A stretch of DNA of 64,000 bases from Nitrospinota bacterium. GTDB lineage: Bacteria > Nitrospinota_A > UBA7883 > JACRLM01. Position 1 is the stretch's first letter. Each line of letters starts with the position of its first letter. The translations under genes were made by a program, and so were the position numbers. The stretch is taken from assembly GCA_016235255.1 (NCBI GenBank), contig JACRLM010000066.1:4179-68178 (forward strand), in the 5' to 3' direction. Below, piece after piece: positions 1 through 56,400 of the stretch. Under the pieces are notes generated by a model. That model was given only the letters and a program-made list of their open reading frames with translations. It was not told the DNA's origin and made no database searches.

Positions 1-3429
<3,429 letters not shown>

Positions 3430-3432
3430 GGG

Positions 3433-3455
3433 CGGGCCTTTGGCCCGTTCTTTAT
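3433..3455 (+). terminator. Weak hairpin plus T-tract in the rpoB-rpoC spacer (possible attenuator, not a full stop)
   Basis: cgggcc-ttt-ggcccg (6-bp GC stem, 3433..3447) followed by ttctttat. It lies 4 nt after the rpoB stop and 54 nt before the rpoC ATG. Confidence 0.25.
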
Positions 3456-3508
3456 CCGGCGGATCAGGATTGTTACAGAGAGCTTAAGAAACTTACAGCT
3501 TAGGAGAT

Positions 3509-7675
<4,167 letters not shown>

Positions 7676-39615: not shown

Positions 39616-39780
39616 GCGTAAAAGAGCTTTTGGAAAAACTCGGCGGGCTGGACGTGCGAGTGCGCGCGGACGGCGGCAGGCTTAAGATAAGCGCGCCGGA
39701 AGGGACGCTCACGGAAATGCTGCGCGGGGAGATCGCCGGACGCAAGGGGGAGATAATCGCCTTTCTGGCGGAAGCGGCGG
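39612..39780 (+). other. TubC-N-type beta-hairpin docking domain (junction 1)
   Basis: The first ~55 aa precede the C domain and follow the pattern LLxxLxxxGVxLxxEGxxLRxxAPxGxLTxxL...K.EI. The upstream PKS ends in the acidic tail EEMEL. Confidence 0.6.
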
Positions 39781-42700
39781 GAACCCGCAAGAGCTCCAGT
39801 ATCGTCCGCGTCCCACGCGAGGGCCGGATTCCGCTCTCCTCGGCGCAAAGACGGCTGTGGTTCATGGACAGGATGGAGGGGCCCGGCGCGGCGTACAACA
39901 TGCCAGCGGCCTTTAAGCTGACCGGCCGGTTTGACGAAGCGGCGTTTTTCAAGGCGGTGGACGCGATAGTAATGCGCCATGAGACGTTAAGGACGGCGTT
40001 CCCATCGGAAGACGGCGAGCCGTACCAGAATATTCAGGGCGCGAGCAGGGCTCCTGTGGCATATGACGATCTTACGGCGCTGCCGCATGAAGAGCGGGAG
40101 GCGAAAGCATTGCGCTCGATAAAAGAACTGACCGCAAGGCCTTTTGACCTTTCCGAGGGGCCGCTTCTGCGGACACACCTGATTAGGACAGGCGAGGATG
40201 AAAGATACCTGGCCTTTTCGATAAGCCATATCGTTTCCGACGGATGGTCGGCCGGGGTCTTCACGCGGGAGATTGAATGGCTGTACGAAGAGCATCTTTG
40301 CGGACGCGGCGCCGGGCTGCCGGAGCTTGAGGTCCAATATGCCGATTATTCGGCGTGGGAACGCGTGGAACTCGCGGAAGGAAAACTCATGCGGCAGGTG
40401 GAGTATTGGCGCGAGACCCTTGCAGGAGCCCCGCCGTCGCTAAACCTTCCGGCGGACAAGGCGCGGCCGGCCATTCAAAGCTCGCGCGGCAGGACCATTG
40501 GCTTTGCGATAGGGGACGATGTACGCGCAAGCCTGGCGAGGATATCCGCCCGGAGCGGCTCCACGATGTTCATGACCCTGGCGGCGGCATACGCCGTCAC
40601 GATGGGCCGTCTTTCAGGGCAGGAGAGCGTGGTGATCGGCGTTCCCGCGGCGAACCGGAACACGCCGGAGTTGGAGGGGATGATCGGCCTTTTCGCCAAC
40701 ACACTTCCGTTATGGATAAAACTGGACGGCAATCCGTCTTTCACAACTCTGTTGGAACGCGCCAGGCTTGCCGCCATCGGGATGTTTGAGAACAGCGAAG
40801 CTCCTTTTGAAAGCCTGGTTGCCGCGTTGAATCCGGAAAGGGATTTGAGCCGCAACCCGATAGCCCAGACCCTTTTCGCCCTGCACAAGTCGCCCCGGCA
40901 CTCCATGTTTCCGGAGCTTAATTTCCCAGGCGTGAAATCGGACACTGTGGAGATCGAAAACGAGCATGTGCGGTACGACGTGGAAACGCACATGTGGGAG
41001 ACCGGCGGCGGGATAGGCGGGCTTCTTATGTACAACACGGGCATTTTTAATGAATCCACCGCACGGAGGCTGGCGGCCCGATACGTAATGCTGGCCGAAT
41101 CAATAGCCGCCGATCCGGAGAAGCGGATATACGACTACGGCCTGCTGACGGCTGAGGAGATAACGCTTGTCTCGGATTGGGGAGGGACTGTGTCCGCCAA
41201 TCCCGCGGGGACTGTCCATGGACTGTTTGAAAAAATCGCGGAGCAAAAGCCGGACGCGGCGGCGGTGATATCAGGCGATGAGACAGTCAACTATGCTCAA
41301 CTAAATAGCCGGGCCGATGCGCTGGCCGTAAGGTTGGCCGCCGCTGGCGCGGGGCGCGGGGCGGCCGTTGGGATATTCATGGAGCGCGGGGCCGGTATGG
41401 TGGCGGCGCTTTTGGGCGCGCTGAAATCCGGCGCGGCTTATGTGCCGGTGGACCCGTCGTACCCGAAAGAGCGGGTGGAGTTCATGCTCGCCGATTCGGG
41501 GATCCGCGCCGTGGTCACGAGCGCCGCGCTGGCCTCTTCACTTCCAGCCGGTGATTTTAGCGTTGTGACGATGGAAGGATTGTCCGGCGCCGTGGCGGCC
41601 GAAGAGGATCGCCCCGCTGAAAAAATATCGTCCGATGATCTGGCGTATATCATCTACACCTCCGGTTCCACAGGCAAGCCCAAGGGAGTGATGGTGACAC
41701 ACTCCAACGTGGTCAACTTCCTTTCGTCCATGGCCGAGGCGCCGGGGATATCGCCGGAGGAGACGGCTCTTGCGGTCACAACAATATCCTTTGATATCGC
41801 GGCGCTGGAGATATTCCTGCCGCTTACATCCGGAGCCCGGGTGGTGATCGCCTCCACCGGGCAGGCGCGGGACGCGGCCAGCCTCATGGCGCTGATGGAA
41901 AAACATTCCGTCACCTTCGCCCAGGCCACGCCGTCCACATGGCGGATGCTCATCGAGGCCGGATGGAACGGCGGGACAGGCCTTAAAGTCCTTTGCGGAG
42001 GCGAGGCCCTTTCAACGGAGCTTGCGGCGAAGCTTCGCGCGCGATCGGGCGCGTTATGGAACATGTACGGACCGACAGAGACCACAATCTGGTCATCCAT
42101 ATATCGCGTGACGGATGCGGACATGGAAGGGGGCGTTGCCACACAACCTGTCGGCAAACCAATCGCCAACACGGTCATGCGGATTCTCGACGCCGTCCTC
42201 AAGCCTGTTCCCATCGGCGCGGCAGGTGAACTTTACATCGGGGGGGCTGGAGTGGCGGCCGGGTACAAAAACAGGCCGGAGCTCACCGCCGAGCGGTTCA
42301 TACCTGATCCATCCGGCGCCACTGGGGCAAAGTTGTACAGAACCGGCGACCTGGCCCGCTACCTCCCCTCCGGGGATATTGAGTATCTGGGCCGCAGTGA
42401 TTTTCAGGTGAAATTCCGGGGACACAGGATCGAGCTTGGCGAGGTGGAATCGGCAGTGGCCTCCGCCCCGGGGGTGGCGCGGGCAGTGGTTGTTGTGCGC
42501 GAGGATGCGCCGGGGGACAAGAGATTGGTGGCGTATGTCACCCCAAGCAAAGCTGAACACGCCGAGGACGCTATAAAGGTGGCCGTGAAAGCGAAGCTGC
42601 CAGACTACATGGCGCCATCGGTTTATGTTTTCATGGACGATCTGCCGCTAACGCCAAACGGCAAGGTGGACCGCAAGGCGCTTCCCGCGCCGCGGAATAA

Positions 42701-43067
42701 ACATCGCGCCCCTTCGGCGGATGCTCGCCCGGCCAACGATCTGGAGCGGGACATGGCCGCCATATGGGGCAGGCTGCTGCAAAAGGAAGACGTGAGCGTA
42801 ACAGACAACCTTTTTGACATCGGAGCGCACTCGTTCTTGATCGTGAAGGCCCAGGCGGTGATAGAAAAAGAACTGGGGATCAGAATGGAGACGATAGAGA
42901 TGTTCCGCAACCCCACCATCCGCTTGCTGGCAAGGCGGCTTGGCGAAGCTTCACCGGGAACGGCCACTTGCGCCACCTTGGATCATTCGTCCACGGCGGA
43001 AAAGAGCAGGGGTGCCATTGCAAGGCAACGGGCGTTGATGAAAAAAATAAGAGGAGCCAATGGCTGA
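39612..43067 (+). CDS. NRPS module: beta-hairpin docking domain-C-A(Gly)-PCP
   Basis: GTGA overlap with the upstream gene. The N-terminus is TubC-N-like: MSVKELLEKLGGLDVRVRADGGRLKISAPEGTLTEMLRGEIAGRKGEIIAFL. C: LSSAQRRLWF, SHIVSDGWS. A: YIIYTSGSTGKPKGV, NMYGPTETTIW, YRTGDLARY. The hand-extracted specificity code is DILQLGMIWK, which matches the Gly code DILQLGLIWK at 9 of 10 positions. PCP: IGAHSF (Ser 42831). Confidence 0.93.
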   Translation: MSVKELLEKLGGLDVRVRADGGRLKISAPEGTLTEMLRGEIAGRKGEIIAFLAEAAGTRKSSSIVRVPREGRIPLSSAQRRLWFMDRMEGPGAAYNMPAAFKLTGRFDEAAFFKAVDAIVMRHETLRTAFPSEDGEPYQNIQGASRAPVAYDDLTALPHEEREAKALRSIKELTARPFDLSEGPLLRTHLIRTGEDERYLAFSISHIVSDGWSAGVFTREIEWLYEEHLCGRGAGLPELEVQYADYSAWERVELAEGKLMRQVEYWRETLAGAPPSLNLPADKARPAIQSSRGRTIGFAIGDDVRASLARISARSGSTMFMTLAAAYAVTMGRLSGQESVVIGVPAANRNTPELEGMIGLFANTLPLWIKLDGNPSFTTLLERARLAAIGMFENSEAPFESLVAALNPERDLSRNPIAQTLFALHKSPRHSMFPELNFPGVKSDTVEIENEHVRYDVETHMWETGGGIGGLLMYNTGIFNESTARRLAARYVMLAESIAADPEKRIYDYGLLTAEEITLVSDWGGTVSANPAGTVHGLFEKIAEQKPDAAAVISGDETVNYAQLNSRADALAVRLAAAGAGRGAAVGIFMERGAGMVAALLGALKSGAAYVPVDPSYPKERVEFMLADSGIRAVVTSAALASSLPAGDFSVVTMEGLSGAVAAEEDRPAEKISSDDLAYIIYTSGSTGKPKGVMVTHSNVVNFLSSMAEAPGISPEETALAVTTISFDIAALEIFLPLTSGARVVIASTGQARDAASLMALMEKHSVTFAQATPSTWRMLIEAGWNGGTGLKVLCGGEALSTELAAKLRARSGALWNMYGPTETTIWSSIYRVTDADMEGGVATQPVGKPIANTVMRILDAVLKPVPIGAAGELYIGGAGVAAGYKNRPELTAERFIPDPSGATGAKLYRTGDLARYLPSGDIEYLGRSDFQVKFRGHRIELGEVESAVASAPGVARAVVVVREDAPGDKRLVAYVTPSKAEHAEDAIKVAVKAKLPDYMAPSVYVFMDDLPLTPNGKVDRKALPAPRNKHRAPSADARPANDLERDMAAIWGRLLQKEDVSVTDNLFDIGAHSFLIVKAQAVIEKELGIRMETIEMFRNPTIRLLARRLGEASPGTATCATLDHSSTAEKSRGAIARQRALMKKIRGANG

Positions 43068-46000
43068 TAAGTACGAGCAGACGGGGCTTGAGCCTATCGC
43101 GGTGGTGGGGATGGCCATGCGCTATCCCGGCGCCGCCACAGCCGAAGGATTCTGGGCGAATCTGCGCAACGGGGTGGAGTCCGTCCGGCGTTTCACCGAT
43201 GAGCAGCTTGCCGCCGCTGGAGTGGCCCCGAAGCTTGTGAAAGATCCTCGGTATGTGAAGGCGCGCGCGGTGCTGGACGGGATAGACATGTTCGACGCCT
43301 CTTTTTTCGGATTCACGGAGTTGGAGGCGCGCCAGACGGACCCGCAGCACAGGCTGTTTCTCGAATGCGCGTGGGAGGCGATGGAGGACGCGGGGTATGA
43401 CTCCACCAAGTACTCCGGAAGGATCGGCGTTTTCGGCGGGTGCGGGTTCAACTCCTACCTTGCTCTAAACTTGTCCGAGGGACTCGATGCCGGCGATCCG
43501 GCCGGGGCCTATGGGCTTTACATTGGCAACGACAAGGATTTCCTGTCCACGCGCGTGGCGTACAAATTAAACCTCACGGGGCCGGCCGTCACCGTGAACA
43601 GCGCGTGCTCCACCTCCCTTGTGGCGGTCCATTTGGCCTGCCAGAGCCTTCTTTCATACCAGTGCGACATGGCGCTGGCCGGAGGCTCCTCTGTCAACGC
43701 CCGGCAGATGGAAGGGTACCTTTACGAGGAGGGGATGATTTTAAGCCCAGACGGCCATTGCAGGGCCTTTGACGCAAAAAGCTCCGGCATCGTGCCGGGA
43801 AGCGGGACGGGGATCGTCGCGCTCAAACGGCTGGAGGACGCGCTGCGCGACGGCGACACGGTGAACGCGGTGATATTGGGCTCCGCGGTGAACAACGACG
43901 GCGCCGTGAAGGCCGGGTACACCGCCCCCAGCGTGGACGGGCAGGCGAAAGTGATAAGCGAGGCCATCGCCATCGCCGGGGTCGAGCCTGAGACCATAAG
44001 TTATGTGGAGGCGCACGGCACCGGTACGCCGATGGGCGACCCGATAGAGATCGCGGCGCTCACGCAGGCTTTTGGGACCGGGAAAAAAGCATATTGCGCC
44101 ATAGGTTCGGTGAAGACTAACATCGGCCACACCGACACGGCGGCGGGGGTGGCCGGACTGATCAAGACCGCGCTGGCGCTTAAAAACCGCGAAATCCCGC
44201 CAAGCCTGAACTACACGGCTCCAAACCCGGCGATTGATTTTGCGAACGGGCCGTTTTTCGTGAACGCCAGATTGCGCCCGTGGGAAGCATTGACCGGGCC
44301 GCGCAGGGCCGGTGTAAGCTCGTTGGGGATAGGGGGGACGAACGCCCATGTGATCATGGAGCAGGCTCCGGCGCAAAGGGATGCGGGAAAATCGCGCAAA
44401 TACTATCTTGCCCCCATGTCCGCCAAAACCGGCAAAGCCCTTGAGACGATGCAAGGCGCCATTGCGGAACGGTTGTCCGCCAATCACGTGCCCATCCAGG
44501 ACGCGGCGTACACCCTTGGCGTGGGCCGCAGGGATTTTGCGGACCGCTCGGCGGTGGTGTGCGCGGGAGCGGATGACGCGGCGCGAAAGTTGAAAAGCGG
44601 CGCGGTCATCACAGGCGAGGCGGGAAGCGGGGCTCGGCCTGTTGTCTTCATGTTCCCGGGGCAGGGGGCGCAAAGCGCGAACATGGCGCGGGGACTGTAT
44701 GAAACGGAGCCTGTGTTCAGGTACGCCATGGACGAATGTTTTGCGATCCTGAGCGGCGTGATGGACACCGATCTTAAATCCATACTCTACCCGTCTCCGG
44801 GCATGGAAGCCGAGGCGGCGTGCCAGCTGACTCGCACAAAATACGCCCAACCGGCCCTTTTCGCGGTATGCCGTTCGCTTGCCGTGGTGTGGAGGAAATG
44901 GGGCGTGACGCCATGCTGCTCCATCGGGCATAGCGTGGGGGAATATGTGAGCGCGCATCTTGCCGGGGTGTTTTCGCTGGAGGACGCGCTAAAACTTGTT
45001 GCGGCGCGGGGAAGGGTCATCGAAAAACAGCCCGGGGGCGCCATGACGGCGGTGTTCATGGACGAGCGGGACATCGCGGGGATCGTCAATGGCGAAATCT
45101 CTATCGCCGCAGTGAACGCGCAGGACGTTTGCGTGCTCTCCGGCCCGGTGGCGGCCGTGGAGCGGATTGAGGCGCAGTTCGGATCGCGCTCGATCTCGTT
45201 CAAAAGGCTCCACACCTCGCACGCGTTCCACTCGGCGATGATGGAGCCTGCGGTGGCGGAGTTTGAAAAAATCGTCCGCGATATGAAGCTTGACGCTCCG
45301 CGCTTTGCGTTCATCTCCAACGTCACGGGAACCTGGATCACCAAAGAGGACGCGGTTGATCCTGCGTACTGGTCGAAACATATCCGGGCAACGGTGCGCT
45401 TCTCCGGGGGAGTGCGGGAAATAATGAAAAAGTACGAAGACGCGGCGTTCCTTGAGGCCGGGCCGGGCCGGACGCTCTCGGGCCTCGTTTCGCGGCACGG
45501 CGCGAAGTTGTCCGTGGCGTGCCTGCCTCATCCCGGCGAGGAGGTGGACGATGTGGAGAAGGCGCTGGACGCGTTGGGGCGCCTTTGGGTGAATGGCGCC
45601 CGGGTGGACTGGCAAGGATTTAATGAAGGCCGGGAGGGGTGCCGCGTGAGCTTGCCGAAATATCCATTCGAGAAAAGACCCTATTGGGCCGGAGGCAAGG
45701 CATCCGGCCATGCGAAAGCGGCGCTGGTGAAGGAAACCGACATGTCGCGCTGGTTTTACGTCCCCTCTTGGAAGCGGACTCCTTCTTCGCCAAAGCAGGA
45801 AGGAACGGGCGACATCCTTGTATTCACGGACAGGGAAGGGAGCGGCGCTTTCCTTGCCGCCCGGCTGGCGGAGCGCGGGATGAGGGTGACCACCGTATAT
45901 GGCGGCGAAGCTTACGAGGCGGGCGATGGACATTTCACGGTGCGGCCCGATTCGCCGGAGGATTGCCGGAAACTGTTCGGGGCGCTCGGAACGGTCCCCG

Positions 46001-48714
46001 GCAGGATCGCCCATCTTTGGGGGATGTCGGCGCAGTCCGGTGAGGAAAGCGTGGACGATGCGCTCGGGCGGGGATTTTACAGTCTGGTCAATATCGTCAA
46101 ACAGGTGGAAAGCCTTGGCAGGAAGATTGAGATATCTGTTTTCACGCGGGACTTGTGGCGCGTCACCGGAGACGAAAACCTGCGCGTGAATTATTCCACC
46201 GTGATGGGGCCGGTGCGGTCGGCCTGGCTGGAGAACGAAAACATAAGCATGCGCAACATTGACTTCGATTCGCGCACCATCCACTCGAAAGGATTCACCA
46301 CCACGGCGCTGGGGGAGATACTTTCCGGATCGGAAGACCGGGTGGCGGCGTACAGAGGCCGCAGCAGGTGGGTGGAGACATTCGCAAGGCTCCCTCTCGG
46401 CCCTGTGGATGCGCGGCCCGGATGGATCCGTGAAAACGGGGCGTACCTTGTCACCGGCGGACTTGGCGCCATCGGGCTTGCGGTGGCCGGGCGCATGGCA
46501 GGCGTGCGCGGGGTGAAGCTGATATTGGGGGGGCGCGGGACACTCCCGCCAAAAAGCGAATGGGACGGCATACTGGCGGGCCGGGGAGGGGACCAGGCGG
46601 CGCGGCTTGGCGCGTTCATCGCCGGAACCGAGCGCCGGATCAAGGACGCCGCCGGCATACGCACCATAGACATGATCGAAGGATTTGAAGAGCGGATGAA
46701 CGCGCTTTGTTCGTCCATCGTGGTGGACTATCTTGCGTCGTGCGGGGTGGCGGTCCGCAAGGGCTCTTCCACCTCGGCCGAATCCGTCAAGGCCACTCTT
46801 GGGATCATACCTAAATTCGAAAAATTCTATCTTGCCTTCCTTAGGATGCTCGGGGAAGACTCCATCATCCGCGTGGAGCGGGGGGCATTGACGTTCCTGA
46901 AAGACGCCGATGAAATTCCACGGTCAAAAGAAATGTCCGCAAAATTGCGCGCGGCCTATCCCGGATTTGAGGGGATGTTGTCGATACTGGAGCATTGCGG
47001 CGCAAGCTATAAGGACGCGCTGTCGGGCAAGATCGAGGCGATAAGCGTGCTTTATCCAAAGGGCGGGGCTGGCCTGATGGAAAGCGCGGTGGCCAACACG
47101 GAGAAACATACCCAACATGACACATACATAAGCCTGCTGGCCGAAACCGTGGCGCATCTGGCCGCCAAACAGGGCGGAGCGCGCATCCTGGAGTTCGGCG
47201 GTGGAAACGGGGCCGTCACGCGCAAGCTCGTCCCGCTTCTTCGCGGGATGGACGTGGAGTATCACTTCACGGACATCGGACGGGCGTTCACAGTGGCCGC
47301 CAGAAACAACGCAAAAAAGCATGGCCACGATTTCATGAAATTCGGCGAGCTGGACATAAGCCGCGACCCGGCCTCGCAAGGCTATGAGCCGGGTAGTTTT
47401 GACGTTGTGTTCGGGCTGGACGTGGTCCACGCCACCCCAAAAATAGAAGAGACGTTGCGGCAGGTGAAAAAACTGTTGAGGCCCGGCGGCGCGCTTTTAT
47501 TGGTGGAGTCCACATCTTTCTGTCGCTGGTTTGACATGGCGTGGGGGCTGGCGGAAGGGTGGTGGTATTTTAATGACACTCAGTACCGCGCAGGTTCGCC
47601 GCTTGTGCGCGCGGACAAGTGGGAGCTGGCGCTGGCGCGTTGCGGATTCACCGGCGCGCAAGCCTGGCCCAAAGAGGAAACGGAAAGAAACACCAGCGGA
47701 TGCGCCATGATAACGGCCTTTAACGGAGTTGCGGACGCGCGGGAAGAAGGCCATGGTCTCATTGGCAAGATACAGGCCGTCAGGCGGCTGGAAAGTATGG
47801 GCGCCACAGTGGAGACGCTGGGCGCCGATGTGGCCGATTGCGCCCGGTTTGCGGAGGCATTGGCGGCGGCGGAGGAGGTGACCGGCCCCGTATCCGGAGT
47901 GATACACGCCGCCGGGCTGGAGGCGAGCGGGACAATCTGCGGCGCCGCGGCGCACAACGCGGCGCGCGAGTTCGCCCCTAAAATCCACGGCATGATCACT
48001 CTGGACAAATATTTCGCCCACCGGCGGCTTGATTTCATGGTCCTGTTCTCGTCCCTAAGCTCCGTGACAGGAGGGGCGGGCCAGGCCGGATACGCGGCTT
48101 CGAACGCGTATATGGACGCATACGCCCAAAAGCGCCACGCATCGGATGGAGTGACCGTCAGCGTCAACTGGGACATGTGGCGCGGCATGGGCCTGGCCCG
48201 GCGGCTGCTTGACCGGATGGAGAAAGTGGCCGGCGGCAAGCTGGACGCCGGGATGAGCGGCGCTCAGGGGGTGGACGCGTTTGAAAGGATCATGAACGGG
48301 ACTTGCGAGCCGCAGGTGATCGTCTCGACGGCGGACATCCGCCAGGTGATCGCAAAGTCAAAAGAGATGTACTCCAGCCTACTTGACGGAGCGGGTGGCG
48401 GGGCTGGACGCAGGCCGGTGAATGACAACCTGGACGCCCTTAGCCAGACGCAACGCGCCGTCGCACGGATATGGATGGACACTCTGGGCGCCGATGTGGC
48501 CGGCGTGTCCGACAATTTTATCGAATTGGGCGGGGACTCTTTGACGGCCATAAGGATCGTCTCCCGGATACGGGACGAGTTCGGGGTGGAGGCTCCGGTG
48601 CGCATCGTGTTCGAGCGCCCCACCATCGGCCAGTTCGCCGGATGGATTGAAACGGCGATGGGCCCAAGCGGTGGAAACGTTGTTGTGGACGAACTGGAGG
48701 AAGGCGAGCTGTGA
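43060..48714 (+). CDS. Type I PKS module: KS-AT-KR with an embedded methyltransferase-carrier protein
   Basis: 8-nt overlap with the upstream gene. KS: SACSTSL (Cys 43606), EAHGTGT, KTNIGHTDTAAG. AT: FPGQGAQ, GHSVGEY (Ser 44932), HAFHS. KR N-part: VTGGLGAIG (46453..46476). MT: ILEFGGGNG (47185..47211), VVFGLDVVHA, LLRPGGALLLVE. KR C-part: GVIHAAG, SSLSSVTGGAGQAGYAASNAY. Carrier: LGGDSL (Ser 48538). The C-terminus ends DELEEGEL. Confidence 0.93.
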   Translation: MADKYEQTGLEPIAVVGMAMRYPGAATAEGFWANLRNGVESVRRFTDEQLAAAGVAPKLVKDPRYVKARAVLDGIDMFDASFFGFTELEARQTDPQHRLFLECAWEAMEDAGYDSTKYSGRIGVFGGCGFNSYLALNLSEGLDAGDPAGAYGLYIGNDKDFLSTRVAYKLNLTGPAVTVNSACSTSLVAVHLACQSLLSYQCDMALAGGSSVNARQMEGYLYEEGMILSPDGHCRAFDAKSSGIVPGSGTGIVALKRLEDALRDGDTVNAVILGSAVNNDGAVKAGYTAPSVDGQAKVISEAIAIAGVEPETISYVEAHGTGTPMGDPIEIAALTQAFGTGKKAYCAIGSVKTNIGHTDTAAGVAGLIKTALALKNREIPPSLNYTAPNPAIDFANGPFFVNARLRPWEALTGPRRAGVSSLGIGGTNAHVIMEQAPAQRDAGKSRKYYLAPMSAKTGKALETMQGAIAERLSANHVPIQDAAYTLGVGRRDFADRSAVVCAGADDAARKLKSGAVITGEAGSGARPVVFMFPGQGAQSANMARGLYETEPVFRYAMDECFAILSGVMDTDLKSILYPSPGMEAEAACQLTRTKYAQPALFAVCRSLAVVWRKWGVTPCCSIGHSVGEYVSAHLAGVFSLEDALKLVAARGRVIEKQPGGAMTAVFMDERDIAGIVNGEISIAAVNAQDVCVLSGPVAAVERIEAQFGSRSISFKRLHTSHAFHSAMMEPAVAEFEKIVRDMKLDAPRFAFISNVTGTWITKEDAVDPAYWSKHIRATVRFSGGVREIMKKYEDAAFLEAGPGRTLSGLVSRHGAKLSVACLPHPGEEVDDVEKALDALGRLWVNGARVDWQGFNEGREGCRVSLPKYPFEKRPYWAGGKASGHAKAALVKETDMSRWFYVPSWKRTPSSPKQEGTGDILVFTDREGSGAFLAARLAERGMRVTTVYGGEAYEAGDGHFTVRPDSPEDCRKLFGALGTVPGRIAHLWGMSAQSGEESVDDALGRGFYSLVNIVKQVESLGRKIEISVFTRDLWRVTGDENLRVNYSTVMGPVRSAWLENENISMRNIDFDSRTIHSKGFTTTALGEILSGSEDRVAAYRGRSRWVETFARLPLGPVDARPGWIRENGAYLVTGGLGAIGLAVAGRMAGVRGVKLILGGRGTLPPKSEWDGILAGRGGDQAARLGAFIAGTERRIKDAAGIRTIDMIEGFEERMNALCSSIVVDYLASCGVAVRKGSSTSAESVKATLGIIPKFEKFYLAFLRMLGEDSIIRVERGALTFLKDADEIPRSKEMSAKLRAAYPGFEGMLSILEHCGASYKDALSGKIEAISVLYPKGGAGLMESAVANTEKHTQHDTYISLLAETVAHLAAKQGGARILEFGGGNGAVTRKLVPLLRGMDVEYHFTDIGRAFTVAARNNAKKHGHDFMKFGELDISRDPASQGYEPGSFDVVFGLDVVHATPKIEETLRQVKKLLRPGGALLLVESTSFCRWFDMAWGLAEGWWYFNDTQYRAGSPLVRADKWELALARCGFTGAQAWPKEETERNTSGCAMITAFNGVADAREEGHGLIGKIQAVRRLESMGATVETLGADVADCARFAEALAAAEEVTGPVSGVIHAAGLEASGTICGAAAHNAAREFAPKIHGMITLDKYFAHRRLDFMVLFSSLSSVTGGAGQAGYAASNAYMDAYAQKRHASDGVTVSVNWDMWRGMGLARRLLDRMEKVAGGKLDAGMSGAQGVDAFERIMNGTCEPQVIVSTADIRQVIAKSKEMYSSLLDGAGGGAGRRPVNDNLDALSQTQRAVARIWMDTLGADVAGVSDNFIELGGDSLTAIRIVSRIRDEFGVEAPVRIVFERPTIGQFAGWIETAMGPSGGNVVVDELEEGEL
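46600..47750 (+). other. SAM-dependent methyltransferase region nested inside the KR Rossmann fold
   Basis: The distance from TGGLGAIG to the GV(V/I)H(C/A)AG strand is 87 aa in the KR of 35089..39615 but 473 aa here. The extra ~385 aa carry the class I MT motif I ILEFGGGNG and post-I/II-like strands. Confidence 0.75.
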
Positions 48715-48880
48715 AATCAGCCGAAGATATAATCCGGGAACTGGATGGGCTGGGGGTAAAGCTCCGGGTGGAAGGCGAAGCCCTGCGCTATAAAGGCCCC
48801 AAAGGCGCAATCACCGGGCGGATGCGGGAGATCATCGGCGGGATGAAGGCCGAAATCATGGCGGCCGCCGCCCGCATGGC
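48711..48880 (+). other. TubC-N-type beta-hairpin docking domain (junction 2)
   Basis: The N-terminal ~55 aa are alignable by eye with 39612..39780. The upstream PKS ends in ELEEGEL. Confidence 0.6.
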
Positions 48881-51800
48881 GGATGACATACTGCCGCCTG
48901 TCATAAACCGTGAAAGGGGGGAAGGAGAGGCGCTGCCGCTGTCATTCGCGCAATTGAGACTATGGTTCCTGTACCGGATGGAGGGGCCCAGCCCAACTTA
49001 CAACGTCCCATCAGCGCACAGGATTAAAGGGAAGCTGGACATTGGCGCGTTGACAAAAAGCGTCAACCATATCATTGCTCGCCATGAGCCGTTGCGTATG
49101 CGCTTTTTCGAGAAAGATGGCGAGGCGTACCAGGCCGCGCGCCCGGTGATGGAGATAGATATACCAGTGGTCCGCCTTGCGGCCGATTCCCATGACGCGC
49201 GGATGGAACAGGCGCGGCGCATGGCAAGCCAAGAGGCGCTAAGGCCGTTTGATCTGGCCGCGGATCCGCTGATCCGGGTGTCCATGGTGGAAATAAGCGA
49301 GGACGACCGGCTGTTGCTTATAACGCTCCACCACATAATCGCCGACGGGTGGTCGGCGACAATTCTCACAATGGAACTGGAGAGACTGTACGATTCGTAT
49401 TTAAACGGCGCCTCTGTCAATCTACCATCGCTCGGGGTGAAATATTCCGATTACTGCCAATGGCAGAAGGATGTGCTAGTGGGTGAAAGGCTGGACAGGC
49501 AGGTCGCCGTTTGGACAGAAAAGCTGAAGGGGGCCCCTGCGCTTCATTCCCTGCCGCTGGACAGGCCACGCCCGGCCTTGCAAAGTTTTAAGGGTGAATC
49601 GGTATATTTCACCATCGGCGCGGACTTGACCGGACGGCTCAAGGCGTTCTGCCGCCAGGAAGGGGTGAGCCTTTTCATGGCCACACTTGCGGCGTTCGCG
49701 GCGATAGTGGCGAAGTACGGCGGGAAGGAGAGCATGGTCATCGGCGTTCCGGCGGCCAACCGGCTTCGCAAAGAGCTTGAGCCGCTCATCGGGCTTTTCG
49801 TCAACACGATTCCCCTGAGGGTGGAGGCCGGACTGGCGCTTTCGTTCAGGGAGCTTGCGGCGCGCACAAGGGAAGTTACGCTGGACTCTTTTTCCGGCCA
49901 GCAGGCCCCGTTTGAAAAACTGGTGGACGTCCTCCAGCCGGACCGGAACATGGCGTACAATCCCCTTACGCAGCTTTCGTTCATCCTGCAGGACAAAAAC
50001 ATGGGGACGCTAAAGCTCGGCGGGATCGCCATCGAGCCTTTCCCCACGGAGTGCAACACCGCCAAGTGCGACCTGACCCTTACCGTGCAGGAGGGCGCCG
50101 CCGGGCTGGACTGTTTTATCGCCTACGCCTCGGACATTTTCTGCCGCCCCTTCATCACCGGCATGGCCCGCCATTATCAAAACCTGATAGACCGCGCCCT
50201 CGGCGAACCGGACCGCCCCGTGGGCCAACTCGACCTTATGGACGGCGAGGAGCGGCGCCTTGCGCTAACGCAATGGAGCGGGGCCGCCAAATGTTCGAGG
50301 CACGACGGGCCTCTCGCCCATGAAATGATCGGCCAGGCCGCCAAACGCCATCCTGACGCAATGGCGGTGTCCGATGGAGCGTCGAGCCTCACGTACGCCC
50401 AGCTTGACGCGCGGGCGCTTGCCATCGCAAAAAGCCTTGCCGCCCGAGGCGCAGGCCCGGACAAAATAATCGGGATATGCCTGGAGCGTTCAGTTGACCT
50501 TATCGCCGCCATACTGGGAGTTTGGAAGGCAGGCGGGGCGTATATGCCGATAGACCCGGATTTCCCTCCGGCCAGGATGAAGTACATGGTGGAGAACTCT
50601 GGCGCGGTGGCTGTGATCACATCGTCCACTCTGGAACATGCCGCCGTCGAGGCTGGCGCTCCTCTGGTTTTTATTGATCGCGCATTCAAAACTTCTTCCG
50701 AGCCCGTATTTATCCATTCTGCGCGGCCCGAAAACCTGGCGTATGTCATATATACCTCCGGCTCCACGGGCCAGCCCAAAGGGGTGATGATAGAGCATCG
50801 CTCCTTAAGAAACCTCGTTCATGCGGTAAATAAGAGCATATATGAACCGTATGAGGGGCGGTTGAACGTGGCGCTTCTCGCTTCGGAAGCTTTTGACGCC
50901 TCGGTAAAGCAGATAGCGACGGCCCTTTGCCTTGGCCACACCCTGTTCGTGGTGGACGGGGCCACAAAAAGGGACGACAAGGCGCTCAAGGAGTTCTTCC
51001 GCAAACACAGGATAGACATGACCGACTGCACACCGAGCCTTCTTTCCGTGATGATCAACGCCGGGATACCGGGTGACGTGGAGTTGCGCCTGAAACATAT
51101 AGATGTGGGGGGTGAAGCGCTGACAAAAACCCTTGCCGCAAACTTCCATCGGCGAGCGCTCGGCACGGGAGTCACCCTTACCAACGCCTATGGGCCGGCG
51201 GAATGCTGCGTGGACGCGGCGAATTTCAATATTGATTCCTTCGCGCCGGGAGAACGGGGGATTGTGCCCGTGGGGGCTCCTCTTCAGAACGTCCGGATTT
51301 ACATCCTCGACGGGGAACTTGCGCCTGTCCCGCCCGGTGTGCCCGGGGAGATATGCATCGCCGGCGAGGGGGTGGGCCGCGGTTACATAAACAATCCAGC
51401 GCTCACGGCGGAACGCTTCATAGGCCACGGACCGCTGGGCGAGGCGCGGCTTTACCGCACCGGCGATATCGGCAGATGGTCCCATGACGGAATGGTGGAG
51501 TTCATCGGGCGCGCCGACGGCCAGGTGAAGGTGCGCGGTTACAGGATCGAGCTGGGGGAGGTGGAGGCGGCGCTAAAGAGCATACCCGGCGTGAAGTCCG
51601 CGGCGGTGGCGGCGGTGGAATTGGAGGACGAAACCCGGCGGCTGGAAGCGCTCTTGCAAGTGTCAAGTCCGGTGACCCCCGGCGGGCTGCGCGCAACGCT
51701 GCTGGAAACGCTGCCGGAGTACATGGTCCCGTCCCGGTTTTACGTGGTGGACTCCATTTCGCTGAACACAAGCGGAAAACTGGACAGGGGCGCGCTGGCG

Positions 51801-53471
51801 GCAATGAAAAAAACGGCGCTGGACAGCGGCGAGGAATTCATGGCCCCACGCGGGCAGCGGGAGGAAATTCTCGCGGAAGTGTGGCGGTCGGTCCTGGGGC
51901 TTGACAGGGTAAGCATCCGCGACAATTTTTTCACCATCGGCGGCGATTCCATAAAAGCGTTGCAGATAGCCGCCCGGCTGCGCGAAAGGAATTTCGAGAT
52001 CGCCATACGCGATCTGTTTTCCCGCCCCACCATCGAAGGACTGGAGCCGCTGCTAAAGGCCGTGAAACCCGAGGTGGACGGGGAAAATTCCGCCGATGGC
52101 CCTGTTCACCTTACCCCGATACAACTATGGTTTTTCGGCCAGTTCGGCGGGAACAAGGCGCATTTCAACCAGACCCTTCTGCTTGCGGCCAAGGAACGGC
52201 TGGACGAGGCCGCCCTGCGCAAAGCGCTGGAGGCCGCGACGGGAAGGCATGACGCGCTGCGCTCCCGGTTCTTCGGGCATGACGGGAAATGGACACAAGA
52301 GATTGGCGGGACTGACCGGCCTTTCAGATTGGACGTGGTGGACCTGACGGCCGAGGAGCATCCGGCCGGGGCGCTGAAAAAGCACGCTTCACTTTTGCAG
52401 GCCGGGATTGACATGGAACGCGGCCCGCTGTTCAACGCGGCGATCTACAGATTGAAAGATGGCGACAGGCTGTTTATGACCTGCCATCACCTGGTGGTGG
52501 ACGCCGTCTCATGGCGTTTTATTTTGGAGGACCTTGCCGCAGCTTACCAGCAGGCGTCCAAAGGCATGGCCCCAAAACTGCCGCCCAAACCTTTCCCGCT
52601 GAAAAAATGGGCCGCGCAGCTTTCCGCCTCGGCCAGCTCGATTGCGGCAGGCCAGATGGAGCACTGGAGCGAAGTGGAGGCGGAGGCGGTAAAAGCGCCG
52701 CGGCTGGCGCCGTTCAAACGCGGGCTTTATTCGGAACGGACGGAGGCCACCCGCTTGCTTGGCGCGGACGCCACATCAAAAATGCTGGACGGGGCCAACA
52801 AGGCATTTAACACGCGGCCGCAGGAACTTATGCTTACGGCGCTTCTGCGGACTTTTCAAAAGCTCGGCGGCGGCGATTCGATGGCTGTGACCCTCGAAGG
52901 CCACGGCCGTGAAGGTATCTTGCCCGGCGCCGATGTGAGCGGAACAGCCGGGTGGTTCACATCCAAGTATCCGGTGGTGTTCACCTCACCGGATGGTGAA
53001 GATATCGCCTCGCAGATTAAAGCGGTGAAGGAAGCGGTGCGGCGGACGCCCCATGGCGGAGCCGGGTACGGTGTCGCCCGGTATATGGCGGGGCAAAGCC
53101 CGGACGGCGGAATGTGGAGCGACCCTGAAATCCTTTTCAACTACCTTGGCGGCTTTGAAGAGCTGGACAACGATCTTTTCGGCAGAGCGTTCGAGGATGT
53201 TGGGCCGCACGCCTCGCCGGATGCGCGGGTGGGATGCGGCATCGAGCTGGTCTCGTACGTCTCGCGGGGAAACCTGGAAATATCGGTGTATTGCGACGGC
53301 CCGTCTTACACGGAAGGTTTTGCGGGGCATTTCGCGGAACGGTATATCAGGGAGCTGGAATCGGTGGCGGAGTTTGCGCTGTCGATGGAGAATCCGCAGC
53401 TCACTCCGTCGGACATAGACTACGACGGGTTCGGCATCGCCCAACTCGACGAATTCATCAATAAGCTGTAG
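48711..53471 (+). CDS. NRPS module: beta-hairpin docking domain-C-A-PCP-E
   Basis: GTGA overlap with the upstream gene. N-terminus: MKSAEDIIRELDGLGVKLRVEGEALRYKGPKGAITGRMREIIGGMKAEI. C: LSFAQLRLWF, HHIIADGWS. A: YVIYTSGSTGQPKGV, NAYGPAECCVDA, YRTGDIGRW. PCP: IGGDSIKAL (Ser 51948, the GGDSI form typical before E domains). E: HHLVVDAVSW. The C-terminal tail is COM-donor-like: TPSDIDYDGFGIAQLDEFINKL. Confidence 0.93.
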   Translation: MKSAEDIIRELDGLGVKLRVEGEALRYKGPKGAITGRMREIIGGMKAEIMAAAARMADDILPPVINRERGEGEALPLSFAQLRLWFLYRMEGPSPTYNVPSAHRIKGKLDIGALTKSVNHIIARHEPLRMRFFEKDGEAYQAARPVMEIDIPVVRLAADSHDARMEQARRMASQEALRPFDLAADPLIRVSMVEISEDDRLLLITLHHIIADGWSATILTMELERLYDSYLNGASVNLPSLGVKYSDYCQWQKDVLVGERLDRQVAVWTEKLKGAPALHSLPLDRPRPALQSFKGESVYFTIGADLTGRLKAFCRQEGVSLFMATLAAFAAIVAKYGGKESMVIGVPAANRLRKELEPLIGLFVNTIPLRVEAGLALSFRELAARTREVTLDSFSGQQAPFEKLVDVLQPDRNMAYNPLTQLSFILQDKNMGTLKLGGIAIEPFPTECNTAKCDLTLTVQEGAAGLDCFIAYASDIFCRPFITGMARHYQNLIDRALGEPDRPVGQLDLMDGEERRLALTQWSGAAKCSRHDGPLAHEMIGQAAKRHPDAMAVSDGASSLTYAQLDARALAIAKSLAARGAGPDKIIGICLERSVDLIAAILGVWKAGGAYMPIDPDFPPARMKYMVENSGAVAVITSSTLEHAAVEAGAPLVFIDRAFKTSSEPVFIHSARPENLAYVIYTSGSTGQPKGVMIEHRSLRNLVHAVNKSIYEPYEGRLNVALLASEAFDASVKQIATALCLGHTLFVVDGATKRDDKALKEFFRKHRIDMTDCTPSLLSVMINAGIPGDVELRLKHIDVGGEALTKTLAANFHRRALGTGVTLTNAYGPAECCVDAANFNIDSFAPGERGIVPVGAPLQNVRIYILDGELAPVPPGVPGEICIAGEGVGRGYINNPALTAERFIGHGPLGEARLYRTGDIGRWSHDGMVEFIGRADGQVKVRGYRIELGEVEAALKSIPGVKSAAVAAVELEDETRRLEALLQVSSPVTPGGLRATLLETLPEYMVPSRFYVVDSISLNTSGKLDRGALAAMKKTALDSGEEFMAPRGQREEILAEVWRSVLGLDRVSIRDNFFTIGGDSIKALQIAARLRERNFEIAIRDLFSRPTIEGLEPLLKAVKPEVDGENSADGPVHLTPIQLWFFGQFGGNKAHFNQTLLLAAKERLDEAALRKALEAATGRHDALRSRFFGHDGKWTQEIGGTDRPFRLDVVDLTAEEHPAGALKKHASLLQAGIDMERGPLFNAAIYRLKDGDRLFMTCHHLVVDAVSWRFILEDLAAAYQQASKGMAPKLPPKPFPLKKWAAQLSASASSIAAGQMEHWSEVEAEAVKAPRLAPFKRGLYSERTEATRLLGADATSKMLDGANKAFNTRPQELMLTALLRTFQKLGGGDSMAVTLEGHGREGILPGADVSGTAGWFTSKYPVVFTSPDGEDIASQIKAVKEAVRRTPHGGAGYGVARYMAGQSPDGGMWSDPEILFNYLGGFEELDNDLFGRAFEDVGPHASPDARVGCGIELVSYVSRGNLEISVYCDGPSYTEGFAGHFAERYIRELESVAEFALSMENPQLTPSDIDYDGFGIAQLDEFINKL

Positions 53472-53483
53472 GCGGCGGGAACA

Positions 53484-56400
53484 ATGGCCATAGAGAAGAG
53501 CAACATAAAGAACATTTATCCATTGACCCCCACGCAGGAGGGGATGCTTTTCCATGCGCTCATGGAAACGTCGCCGGAGGCGTATTTCAACCAGATCATA
53601 TATACGCTGCGCGGTGATCTGGACGCCGACGCGTTCGAGAAAAGCTGGAACGAGATAATAAAGCGCCACGACACCCTGCGGACCCTGTTCACATACAGGA
53701 ACACCGACAGGCCCCTGCAGGTGGTGCTGCGGGAACGGCCCTTGCGCGCCTCCATCCACGATCTTATCGGCCTGCCACAGGCGCAAAAGGAGCTTGCGGC
53801 GGAGGAGATACGCCGCGCGGACCTTGCAAAGCCTTTCGACCTGGAACAGGACATCCTGATGCGGCTATATGTGATCCGTCTGGAGGACAATCTGTGGAAG
53901 GTGATATGGAGCCATCATCACATTCTCATGGACGGATGGTCGGTGGGCAATGTGATGAAAGAGCTTATGGCGGTGTACCTTGCCATGAAAAAAGGGACAA
54001 GGCCGGCCCTCGCCCCGCCGCCTCCATACGCTGAATACATAAAGTGGCTCGAAAAGCTGGACAAGTCCGCCTCGGGGGACTACTGGAAGCGTTACCTTGC
54101 CGGTTATGAAAAGCCGGTGACTTTCCCACGCTTGAAACGTCCATCTGGCAAACGGGAGATAAAGGACTTCAGATTCTCGTTTGATGAAACGTTGACCTCC
54201 CAGGTGGAGCGCTTCACCCGGGAGCGCGGCGTCACGCTGGGGGCTGTCACGCAGGGGGCGTGGGGCGCCCTTATGGCAAGGTATAACGGGGTGGACGACG
54301 TGGTGTCCGCTTCCGTCGTCTCCGGAAGGCCGCCGGAACTTGAGGGGGTGGAGTCCTATGTGGGGCTTTTCATAAACGCAATACCTGTCCGCTCCCGGAT
54401 CGGGGCCTCCACATCCTTCGCCGGGTTGACGGAGAGCCTTATGCGGGACGCGGCCGATGGCGCGGCCCACCACTATTATCCGCTGGGTAAAATACAGACG
54501 GCCCATCCTCTCGGGCGCAATCTTCTGGACCATGTGACGGCCCTGGAAAACTATCCTGTCCAGGAGCGGCTAAACGATCCGGCGCTGTATGAAGACCTCG
54601 GGTTTGCCCCAGTTAGCTTTGAATGGACCGAGCGCACCAACTACGACTACGATTTTATGGCCATCCCCGGCAAGCGGCTGGACTTCCATGTGACGTACGA
54701 CTCGAACATGTTCGATGCAGGGCAGATGGAGGCGATGGCGGGGCATCTTGAGAACATCGTCCGTTCGGCCGCCGCCGACCCCCTCGCGCCGCTGAATAAA
54801 ATGGACATCCTTGCCCCGGCAGAGAGAGAACGGATACTGTTCGAGTTTGGCGGGCCCGCCTCCATAAATCCACCGGATGGGACCGTCTTGAACCTTATCG
54901 AAGAGAACGCCCGTAAAACTCCCGATGCGGCAGCGCTGGTGTGCGCCGGACGGCGGCTTACCTATTCGCAATTGAACCAACGCGCCAACCGGATCGCCGG
55001 AAGGCTTATAAAAGCTTACGGTGTGCGCCCCGGGGACATTGTGGGTGTGATGATGGAAAAGAGCGAGCGGGCGGTGGTTGCCATCCTCGCCATCTTAAAG
55101 GCGGGCGCGGCGTACCTGCCTTTGGACCCGGAGCATCCGGAGAAAAGGACAGCCGGCATACTGGCGCAGGCAGGCGCGAAAATGCTTATCACCGAACAGC
55201 GCGTGGCCGAAGGGATGGAGTTTGACGGCATCCTGGACTTCATCATGCCGCAAACCGGGATCGTGACCACCCCCCCCCGCTCCAGCATACAGGAGCTGGA
55301 CTCGCTCCCCTACGCGGACAGGTCGGTGATCAATTACGAGAAATACCACAACTTCATCGGCCAGTCCGTGGCAAAGCGCGCTATGGCCATCCAGTCCACC
55401 CGGGGATGCCCATACCTTTGCGCCTACTGCCACAAAGTGTGGCCGAAAAAGCACAAGCGCCGCTCCGCCGAAAACCTTTTCGGCGAGGTGAAAAAACTGC
55501 ATGACTGCGGTGTGCGCAGGTTCGTGTTCATAGACGATATTTTCAACATGGACCGCGCCAACAGCGCAAGGTTCTTCGAGATGGTGATCCGCGCCCGGCT
55601 GGACATACAGATATTCTTCAGCAACGGGCTGCGGGGGGACACGCTGACCCCGGACTACATAGACCTTATGGTGGAGGCTGGGACGAAGAGCATGGCCCTG
55701 GCGCTGGAGACCGCGTCGCCACGCCTGCAGAAACTGATGAAGAAAAACCTGCGCCTCGAGCGGTTCAAGGAAAACCTGGACTATATCGCCGCCCGCCACC
55801 CGCAGGTGATCCTGGAGCTTTTCACCATGCACGGCTTCCCCACGGAGACGGAGGAAGAGGCCATGATGACGCTGGATTTCATCCGCGGGATAAAGTGGAT
55901 ACATTTTCCCTATGTGTTCATCCTCCGCATTTTCCCGGACACGGACATGGCAAGGCTGGCGATGGACAACGGCGTGAGCGCGGAAGCGATAAAAGCTTCC
56001 GCCACGCTGGGCTACCACGAGCTGCCGTCAATACTGCCATTCCCGGCCAGCTTTTCAAAACGATATCAGATGACGTTCCTGAACGAGTACTTCCTCTCGC
56101 GCGAGCGGCTGATTTCCGTGCTGCCGCGCCAGATGGCGCTTTTGAGCGAGGACGAGCTTGTCCAGAAATACAACAGCTATCTGCCAAAAGACATCCGGTC
56201 GTTCGGCGATTTTCTGGAGCTTGCGGGGCTTTCAATGGAAGACCTGCGGGGGGCGGCCTTCGCGGAGGACGGCGCAAAGCAGTCCGCCGGGCTCAACAGC
56301 AGGCTCGCCGCCGCGTTCCCCTCGCCTAACCCTGAGAAAGGGGCGCTCCGCGTCCTGCTGCTCGACCTTTCGCAGAATTTTACGAAGGACAAAACCCTCC

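Follow-up and report, generated by a model that had tools for sequence, protein, structure and literature searches.

A C-methyltransferase probably nested within the catalytic ketoreductase fold of a polyketide synthase from a Nitrospinota bacterium

We analyzed a window of 64,000 nucleotides (nt) from a Nitrospinota bacterium (contig JACRLM010000066.1, positions 4,179 to 68,178 of the forward strand), and in it a polyketide synthase (PKS) gene located at 43060..48714 (Table 1). The encoded protein carries a ketosynthase (KS), an acyltransferase (AT), a structural ketoreductase subdomain (ψKR), a ketoreductase (KR), a methyltransferase (MT) as well as an acyl carrier protein (ACP). We think it likely that the KR is interrupted: a complete carbon methyltransferase (C-MT) would sit inside a loop of the KR Rossmann fold, and the pair would carry out α-methylation with S-adenosylmethionine (SAM) followed by NADPH-dependent reduction. 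An earlier note, made from the sequence, had proposed that the MT lies inside the catalytic KR rather than between domains. This placement was borne out, since a separate ψKR lies upstream and the Pfam KR profile (PF08659) matches on either side of the MT.

As judged from these profile matches, the KR is split into complementary parts, with PF08242, a methyltransferase family, between them. The Pfam KR match at amino acids (aa) 1571-1708 (E = 1.3e-37) covers only profile positions 42-179, and a 61-aa piece around TGGLGAIG, scanned alone, matched positions 1-34 (E = 1.7e-4, 22.0 bits). The matches of the KR pieces and of the MT are stronger by far than chance would give. For the paralogous PKS module encoded at 35089..39615, the hit is unbroken from position 1 to 179. 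The N-terminal piece of the split KR contains strand β1 (AYLVT), the TGGLGAIG loop for NADPH, a helix, β2 (KLILGG), R1159 and LPPKSEW; within it, VTGGLGAIG corresponds to aa 1131-1139 (46450..46476) and VKLILGGRGTLPPKSEW to aa 1152-1168 (46513..46563). The C-terminal piece resumes with a helix, β3 (TVETLG), ADVAD, GVIHAAG and the catalytic residues; IQAVRRLES starts at aa 1571 (47770), GVIHAAG at aa 1613, SSLSS at aa 1664 and YAASNAY at aa 1678 (48091). The open reading frame (ORF) is without interruption, and every motif quoted here is in frame within it. The earlier note had placed the MT motif ILEFGGGNG exactly (aa 1376-1384, 47185..47211) but had started VTGGLGAIG at 46453, which is the T, a slip of 3 nt. 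It was also right about a large MT-bearing insert, but its estimate of about 385 aa falls short of the 402 aa measured between W1168 and I1571.

The insertion point in the loop after the second β-strand, which had been assigned by eye, was upheld by multiple alignment. We aligned the KR with uninterrupted KRs from the paralogue and from three conventional homologues (P0010, P0018 and P0019); the KR of PksJ (5ktk) has the same pattern. In these KRs, 'YxxTGGLGxxG...LxLxGR..LPPRxxW' is followed by 12-20 residues and these by 'KIxxxxxLExxGAxVxxxxADVxD', and the alignment brackets the insert between LPPxxxW on one side and the 'KIxxxxxLE' helix on the other. Flanking the insert are the loop remnants 'DGILAGRGG' and 'EEGHGLIG', which look like the paralogue loop 'AAYSDGHPLGDPVSL' cut in two. 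When a profile built from 14 nested sequences was compared with solved KRs (5ktk, 4j1q, 5d2e, 2fr0 and others), it matched them in two stretches; the larger one begins at residue 268 of 5ktk, in the 'EKIQAVRELE' helix. The linkers between the MT and the KR pieces are short, about 10 aa or less. The insertion site would thus be a surface loop following β2 and LPPxxxW, ahead of the next helix, and the insert a complete PKS-type C-MT of about 380 aa that would project as a separate globular domain.

We also examined AlphaFold models of aa 1101-1717 (model 1, predicted local distance difference test score, pLDDT, 82.6) and aa 905-1725 (model 2, pLDDT 87.1). DSSP assigned β1-α-β2 ahead of the insert and α-β3...β6 behind it. 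Taken together, the flanking KR pieces aligned to the PksJ KR over 220 residues at 2.4 Å and to single-domain short-chain dehydrogenases/reductases (SDRs) over 190-200 residues, more than the approximately 160-167 residues held by the post-MT piece alone, and the modeled KR superposed on active KRs at 2.4-2.5 Å. In model 2, the ψKR was part of a KR didomain that superposed on solved KRs. The two KR pieces and the ψKR thus appear to join as one didomain in the models, a continuity that we infer from aligned lengths. Model 2 was of low confidence only at ADAREEGH (aa 1558-1565). In these models, the MT has an N-terminal helical lid and the overall fold of a PKS C-methyltransferase.

The earlier note had itself named a conventional order that could explain its observation, in which the segment ahead of the MT is the structural ψKR, with a glycine motif that is intact by chance. 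Characterized modules do have a ψKR beside the MT (Ansari 2008, PMC2613160), as does HMWP1. However, a distinct ψKR (PF21394) is found at aa 917-1077, ahead of the glycine motif; the post-MT piece is without KR profile positions 1-41, whereas the pre-MT piece gives positions 1-34; and the glycine motif and R1159 are conserved across the 72 nested sequences described below. We regard the conventional order as highly improbable.

The nested arrangement recurs. An exhaustive HMMER search with aa 1101-1717 (617 aa) against 1.84 billion cluster representatives (50% identity) returned 42,731 hits, and about half of the best 150 of these covered the entire query as one unbroken match. When the N-terminal KR piece, the MT and the C-terminal KR piece were scored as three segments, 62 of the best 150 of the 42,731 hits were nested. 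By the end-to-end criterion, at least 71 further nested sequences were present among those retrieved, a few of which are cluster members rather than representatives. Insert lengths across 72 nested sequences ranged from 372 to 435 aa (median 412). A neighbor-joining tree built from 210 MT domains placed every one of the 71 nested MTs in one clade of 83 leaves. The nesting is inherited rather than accidental, and it is widespread, with at least 70 sequence clusters that carry it. The arrangement, which the earlier note called structurally unusual, differs from characterized modules but is not a one-off.

A different kind of accident, an assembly chimera or a frameshift that joined unrelated pieces, might be suspected from the probably metagenomic origin of the window. 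We give this explanation practically no weight: the ORF is uninterrupted, the identical protein was found on three independently assembled contigs from two samples, which argues against an artefact, and both a closed genome and the 71 other sequences show the same order. Records of the exact protein come only from the Sequence Read Archive run SRR12113394.

The closed genome belongs to a cultured bacterium, Desulfosediminicola flagellatus IMCC35005 (NZ_CP050698.1, 3422926-3436767, here locus L002). Its nested PKS (ORF 2611..8388 of L002, 1925 aa) shares 42% identity with the window protein from end to end, and its KR is split in the same way. The product of the next gene (ORF 8385..13172 of L002) is 38% identical, again over the full length, to the nonribosomal peptide synthetase (NRPS) encoded at 48711..53471 in the window. 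Gene order and the 8-nt and 4-nt gene overlaps are alike in the two clusters. The other named carriers are all uncultured, known from metagenomes or metagenome-assembled genomes, and include Thermoanaerobaculia, Ozemobacteraceae, Aminicenantes and Arenicella. Annotations of the nested homologues go no further than 'SDR family oxidoreductase' or 'adenylation domain protein', and no characterized pathway was found among the nested cluster members that we looked up. In one set of 22 nested homologues (A3), KR and MT were detected in all 22, KS in 20 and ψKR in 15.

Three other layouts were seen in the same MT clade: conventional MT-ψKR-KR in P0100, ψKR-KR-MT with the MT behind the KR in P0120, and ψKR-(KR N-piece)-MT in P0064 and P0082, in which a KR C-piece was not detectable. 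The range of layouts suggests repeated domain shuffling around the nested-MT lineage. A genome scan with one MT motif gave 25 conventional loci and 1 nested locus among the 80 species-representative loci listed, and at least 63 loci with an MT but no nearby KR among the matches listed. A tblastn search of plasmids showed conventional layouts only and no nesting. A tail of the type '...EEEGTL/EEGEL' is common to the C-termini of many nested homologues.

In the window protein, the active sites of both the KR and the MT look intact. The KR retains TGGLGAIG (aa 1132-1139), the basic R1159 after β2 and a complete catalytic set, K1641 (47980), S1664 (48049), Y1678 (48091) and N1682 (48103). The class I MT (PF08242 and relatives, aa 1358-1531; PF08242 E = 2.2e-16) retains LEFGGGNG (SAM motif I, ExGxGxG; aa 1377-1384, 47188..47211), D1405 as the acidic residue after β2 of the MT core, His1457 (47428..47430) and Glu1483 (47506..47508). 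Its best sequence match was the CurJ C-MT (E = 2.5e-51), followed by DisA, PksCT, AprA MT2 and LovB. H1457 (VVHAT) aligns with CurJ NVLHAT, and E1483 (LVEST) with CurJ LYEAT; we take the corresponding His and Glu of CurJ and PksCT to be the catalytic pair.

Conservation across the 72 nested sequences (G33, G34, S564 and Y578 in query numbering) differed between the two halves. For the KR, the glycines G33 and G34 are kept in 72 and 71 sequences, the catalytic Lys in 60, S564 in 71, Y578 in 56 and the Asn in 50; 39 of the 72 are fully canonical. For the MT, the E, G and G of the motif are kept in all 72, D in 68, His in 71 and Glu in 72, and the whole E-G-G-D-H-E signature in 67. Thus, to the question raised in the earlier note of whether both activities are retained, the sequence answers yes for the window protein, but for the family the answer is mixed. 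The MT is the more constrained partner, with some host KRs apparently decayed to scaffolds that hold it. In the nested homologues P0032, P0056, P0058, P0062, P0065, P0074, P0105, P0111, P0119, P0134, P0151 and P0158, the Tyr is replaced (by H, D, R or N), and some of them also have a degenerate glycine motif, with the MT signature intact.

Such decay leaves some room for an alternative in which the MT is active, the split KR is a dead scaffold and the product is an α-methyl-β-keto unit. Besides the 16 of 72 nested sequences with a replaced Tyr, a large insert near the site for the NADPH 2'-phosphate (R1159) could disturb cofactor binding. For the window protein we consider this improbable, as all of the KR residues listed above are kept, more than half of the family is fully canonical, and the modeled KR superposes on active KRs.

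The KR-centered position of the MT could also suit an enzyme that acts after reduction, namely an O-methyltransferase (O-MT) that methylates the β-hydroxyl left by the KR to give a β-methoxy product, and PKS O-MTs are also found in KS-AT-MT-KR-ACP modules (Ansari 2008, PMC2613160). We find this quite improbable: the top matches, by sequence and by fold, are without exception C-MTs or C-MT-like (CurJ, DisA, PksCT, LovB and AprA MT2), and the two positions that align with the His/Glu pair of C-MTs are almost invariant. No PKS O-MT structure of the StiD/StiE/CurL type appeared among the MT sequence hits up to E = 10, which also favors C-methylation.

In animal fatty acid synthases (FAS), inactive MT remnants exist (5c37, 4piv), and by analogy the MT could be a noncatalytic relic like the FAS pseudo-methyltransferase (ΨME), with the KR alone at work. 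This is very unlikely here: the window MT has an intact SAM motif I, as well as D1405, His1457 and Glu1483, and nearly all of the family keeps the full signature. The extender selected by the AT bears on the same point. An HAFH motif in an AT denotes a malonyl extender, and it is present here at aa 721-724 (45220..45231), so the methyl of SAM is the sole predicted route to a branch at this position.

These features allow a four-step scheme for the module. The KS would extend an aminoacyl or peptidyl chain, predicted to be handed over by the upstream NRPS (39612..43067, overlapping the PKS gene by 8 nt), with malonate. The C-MT would then α-methylate the β-ketoacyl-ACP with SAM, using His1457 and Glu1483 as expected from homology to the CurJ, DisA and PksCT enzymes; from work on CurJ and GphF, C-MTs reportedly act on the β-ketoacyl-ACP before reduction. 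The KR would next reduce the β-keto group with NADPH through K1641, S1664, Y1678 and N1682. With an NRPS module upstream of the PKS, as for BlmVIII-type modules, the predicted product is a 4-amino-3-hydroxy-2-methyl-acyl unit, which would pass to the next NRPS module, the putative recipient being encoded at 48711..53471.

Some observations weigh against an interrupted KR that methylates and then reduces, or blur its details. At 22.0 bits, the isolated N-terminal KR piece fell short of the Pfam cut-off, which is 22.6. The predicted template modeling (pTM) scores of 0.59-0.61 leave the orientation of the MT relative to the KR undefined. The absence of the catalytic Tyr from some members, noted above, indicates that the KR half can decay in the nested architecture. 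Neither an LDD nor a W motif for KR stereotype was recognizable, and the α-carbon could be methylated once or twice.

A bolder possibility is that the nesting is itself functional. An MT tethered through two short linkers at the cofactor edge of the KR might form a coupled station that enforces methylation before reduction or gates access of NADPH or ACP, with the KR as an obligatory scaffold even where its catalysis is lost, and the loop would be a third insertion site of the modifying region. We hold this to be rather unlikely. If true, it would define a previously unrecognized insertion site, a PKS counterpart of interrupted adenylation domains.

The chemistry of the module is predictable from two well-known enzymes; the topology is apparently new, and the kind of system is not. 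Models of the modifying regions of PKSs and FAS have the MT ahead of the ψKR and the enoylreductase (ER) between ψKR and KR, and an MT hung directly on the KR is a different wiring. Standard domain callers detect only the post-MT part of the KR and report KS-AT-MT-KR-ACP, which renders the variant invisible in annotations. For engineering, the loop after β2 and LPPxxxW is a natural permissive site at which a KR accepts a domain of roughly 400 aa. With such a module one can also ask what controls the order of methylation and reduction, and the family is a case of domain-in-domain evolution in which the MT is tightly constrained while some host KRs decay. The cultured D. flagellatus makes experiments feasible.

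Table 1. Coordinates of the interrupted KR, the PKS gene that carries it and adjacent modules in the window.
Feature	Position	Strand	Basis
Whole PKS gene, 1884 aa, KS-AT-ψKR-KR[C-MT]-ACP, ...EEGEL tail	43060..48714	+	ORF list, translation, Pfam
Ketosynthase, aa 11-385	43090..44214	+	PF00109 E 4.8e-73, PF02801 E 8.4e-44
Acyltransferase, aa 529-807	44644..45480	+	PF00698 E 7.1e-44
Structural ψKR subdomain, aa 917-1077, intact, upstream of the split	45808..46290	+	PF21394 E 8.2e-13
KR catalytic subdomain, N-piece, aa 1127-1168	46438..46563	+	PF08659 positions 1-34, DSSP of models
Inserted segment, aa 1169-1570, 402 aa, short linkers included	46564..47769	+	Alignment, models
Predicted C-methyltransferase, complete and of the PKS type, with a helical lid at its N-terminus and a class I SAM core, aa 1177-1558	46588..47733	+	
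KR catalytic subdomain, C-piece, aa 1561-1717	47740..48210	+	PF08659 positions 42-179, E 1.3e-37, DSSP, conservation
Acyl carrier protein, aa 1800-1863, GGDSL	48457..48648	+	PF00550 E 3.5e-16
Upstream NRPS module: docking domain, condensation (C), adenylation (A), thiolation (T)	39612..43067	+	
Downstream NRPS: TubC-type docking domain, C, A, T, C	48711..53471	+	
Paralogous PKS module KS-AT-ψKR-KR-ACP, KR unbroken, internal reference	35089..39615	+	PF08659 1-179 at aa 1131-1330

The surroundings of the gene were also inspected. The rpoB gene, whose 5' end is cut by the window, and rpoC (112..7675, forward strand) precede the cluster and are followed by genes for a ClC channel, a DsbD-like protein, a glycosyltransferase and an ABC transporter; these flanking genes indicate that the cluster is chromosomal. 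The first megasynthase (26699..35092, forward strand, 2797 aa) contains a fatty-acyl-AMP-ligase-like domain, ACP, KS, a KS-AT linker, dehydratase (DH), C, A and T domains. No AT was detected after its KS at E <= 1e-5, though KS-AT linker families were present. TubC-type N-terminal docking domains on the NRPSs at 39612..43067 and 48711..53471 have as partners the acidic tails, among them ...EEGEL of the PKS, at the C-termini of the subunits before them.

A second interrupted domain is present farther downstream. The NRPS at 53484..59684 (forward strand, C-A-T-C, 2066 aa) has an adenylation domain that is also interrupted, by an insert at about 55206..56906; the AMP-binding profile is split, with positions 2-103 at aa 473-574 and positions 152-383 at aa 1142-1370. 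Within the insert, we noted matches to Radical_SAM (aa 637-800) and B12-binding (aa 979-1091) families. It resembles B12-dependent radical SAM methyltransferases, with all matches below the family cut-offs, and lies at about the A2/A3 site, where MTs are known to interrupt A domains. An A domain with a cobalamin radical-SAM enzyme inside it may be more unusual than the nesting of an MT in a KR; a literature text search for radical-SAM-interrupted A domains found nothing relevant.

Among known systems, the nearest in domain content is the conventional KS-AT-MT-ψKR-KR-ACP module (HMWP1, BlmVIII, nodularin and melithiazol), which has the same domain set and predicted chemistry as the window module. 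BlmVIII likewise follows an NRPS module, with a 4-amino-3-hydroxy-2-methyl acid unit expected. The order differs: in conventional modules the MT lies between AT and ψKR and the KR is unbroken, whereas the window module reads ψKR, KR(β1-β2), MT, KR(rest). In characterized clusters, MTs occupy AT-KR, DH-ER or DH-KR linkers, and the 200 aa behind the MT in the BlmVIII, nodularin and melithiazol modules make up the KR's structural half (Ansari 2008, PMC2613160). HMWP1 of the yersiniabactin pathway, which we ran as a control, was conventional: its MT lies at aa 1086-1243, and aa 1559-1729 match the KR profile in full (2-179). The window protein differs on both points, since its MT is not placed between AT and ψKR and its KR is broken.

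Among solved MTs, that of CurJ (5thy) lies behind the DH and ahead of the ψKR, and the DisA (DszA) MT (6cca) belongs to a trans-AT module; these and the PksCT MT (5mpt) are all outside the folds of other domains, whereas the window MT is inside the KR fold. The ψKR of fungal and FAS-type systems connects KR to C-MT (PMC6839510), and the ER is located between the KR subdomains, ψKR and KR (PMC5725682). The KR region of FAS and reducing PKSs (DH-ΨME/C-MT-ψKR-ER-KR) is known to accept inserted domains, with the MT or ΨME ahead of the ψKR. There, however, insertions fall between subdomains, while the window insertion is inside the catalytic Rossmann fold, with the MT tethered to the KR and not to the ψKR.

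Among KRs, those of the PksJ type (5ktk, 4j1q and MlnE 5d2e) are the closest solved structures, 5ktk being closest to the KR of the paralogue. An extended 'LPPRxxW...' loop after β2, the insertion site in the window KR, is present in these KRs too, but they are uninterrupted, with 12-16 residues from W to the next helix versus about 400 in the window KR. We found no description of an MT within the catalytic KR fold in a limited text corpus, one that did not include the structure papers on the CurJ C-MT and the StiD/E O-MTs. The nearest parallel in design is in NRPSs, where interrupted A domains hold a tailoring domain in a loop, give a split profile and form a bifunctional unit (PMC2613160). 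Domains with an MT at A8/A9 or A2/A3, or with a KR inside the A domain (6ulw, which was among the best structural matches of the window KR part), follow the same principle, though their host is an adenylation domain rather than a KR and no homology to the window KR and MT is implied. Nesting of an MT within a KR is apparently unreported, and it appears to be a real and recurrent topological variant of known domains.

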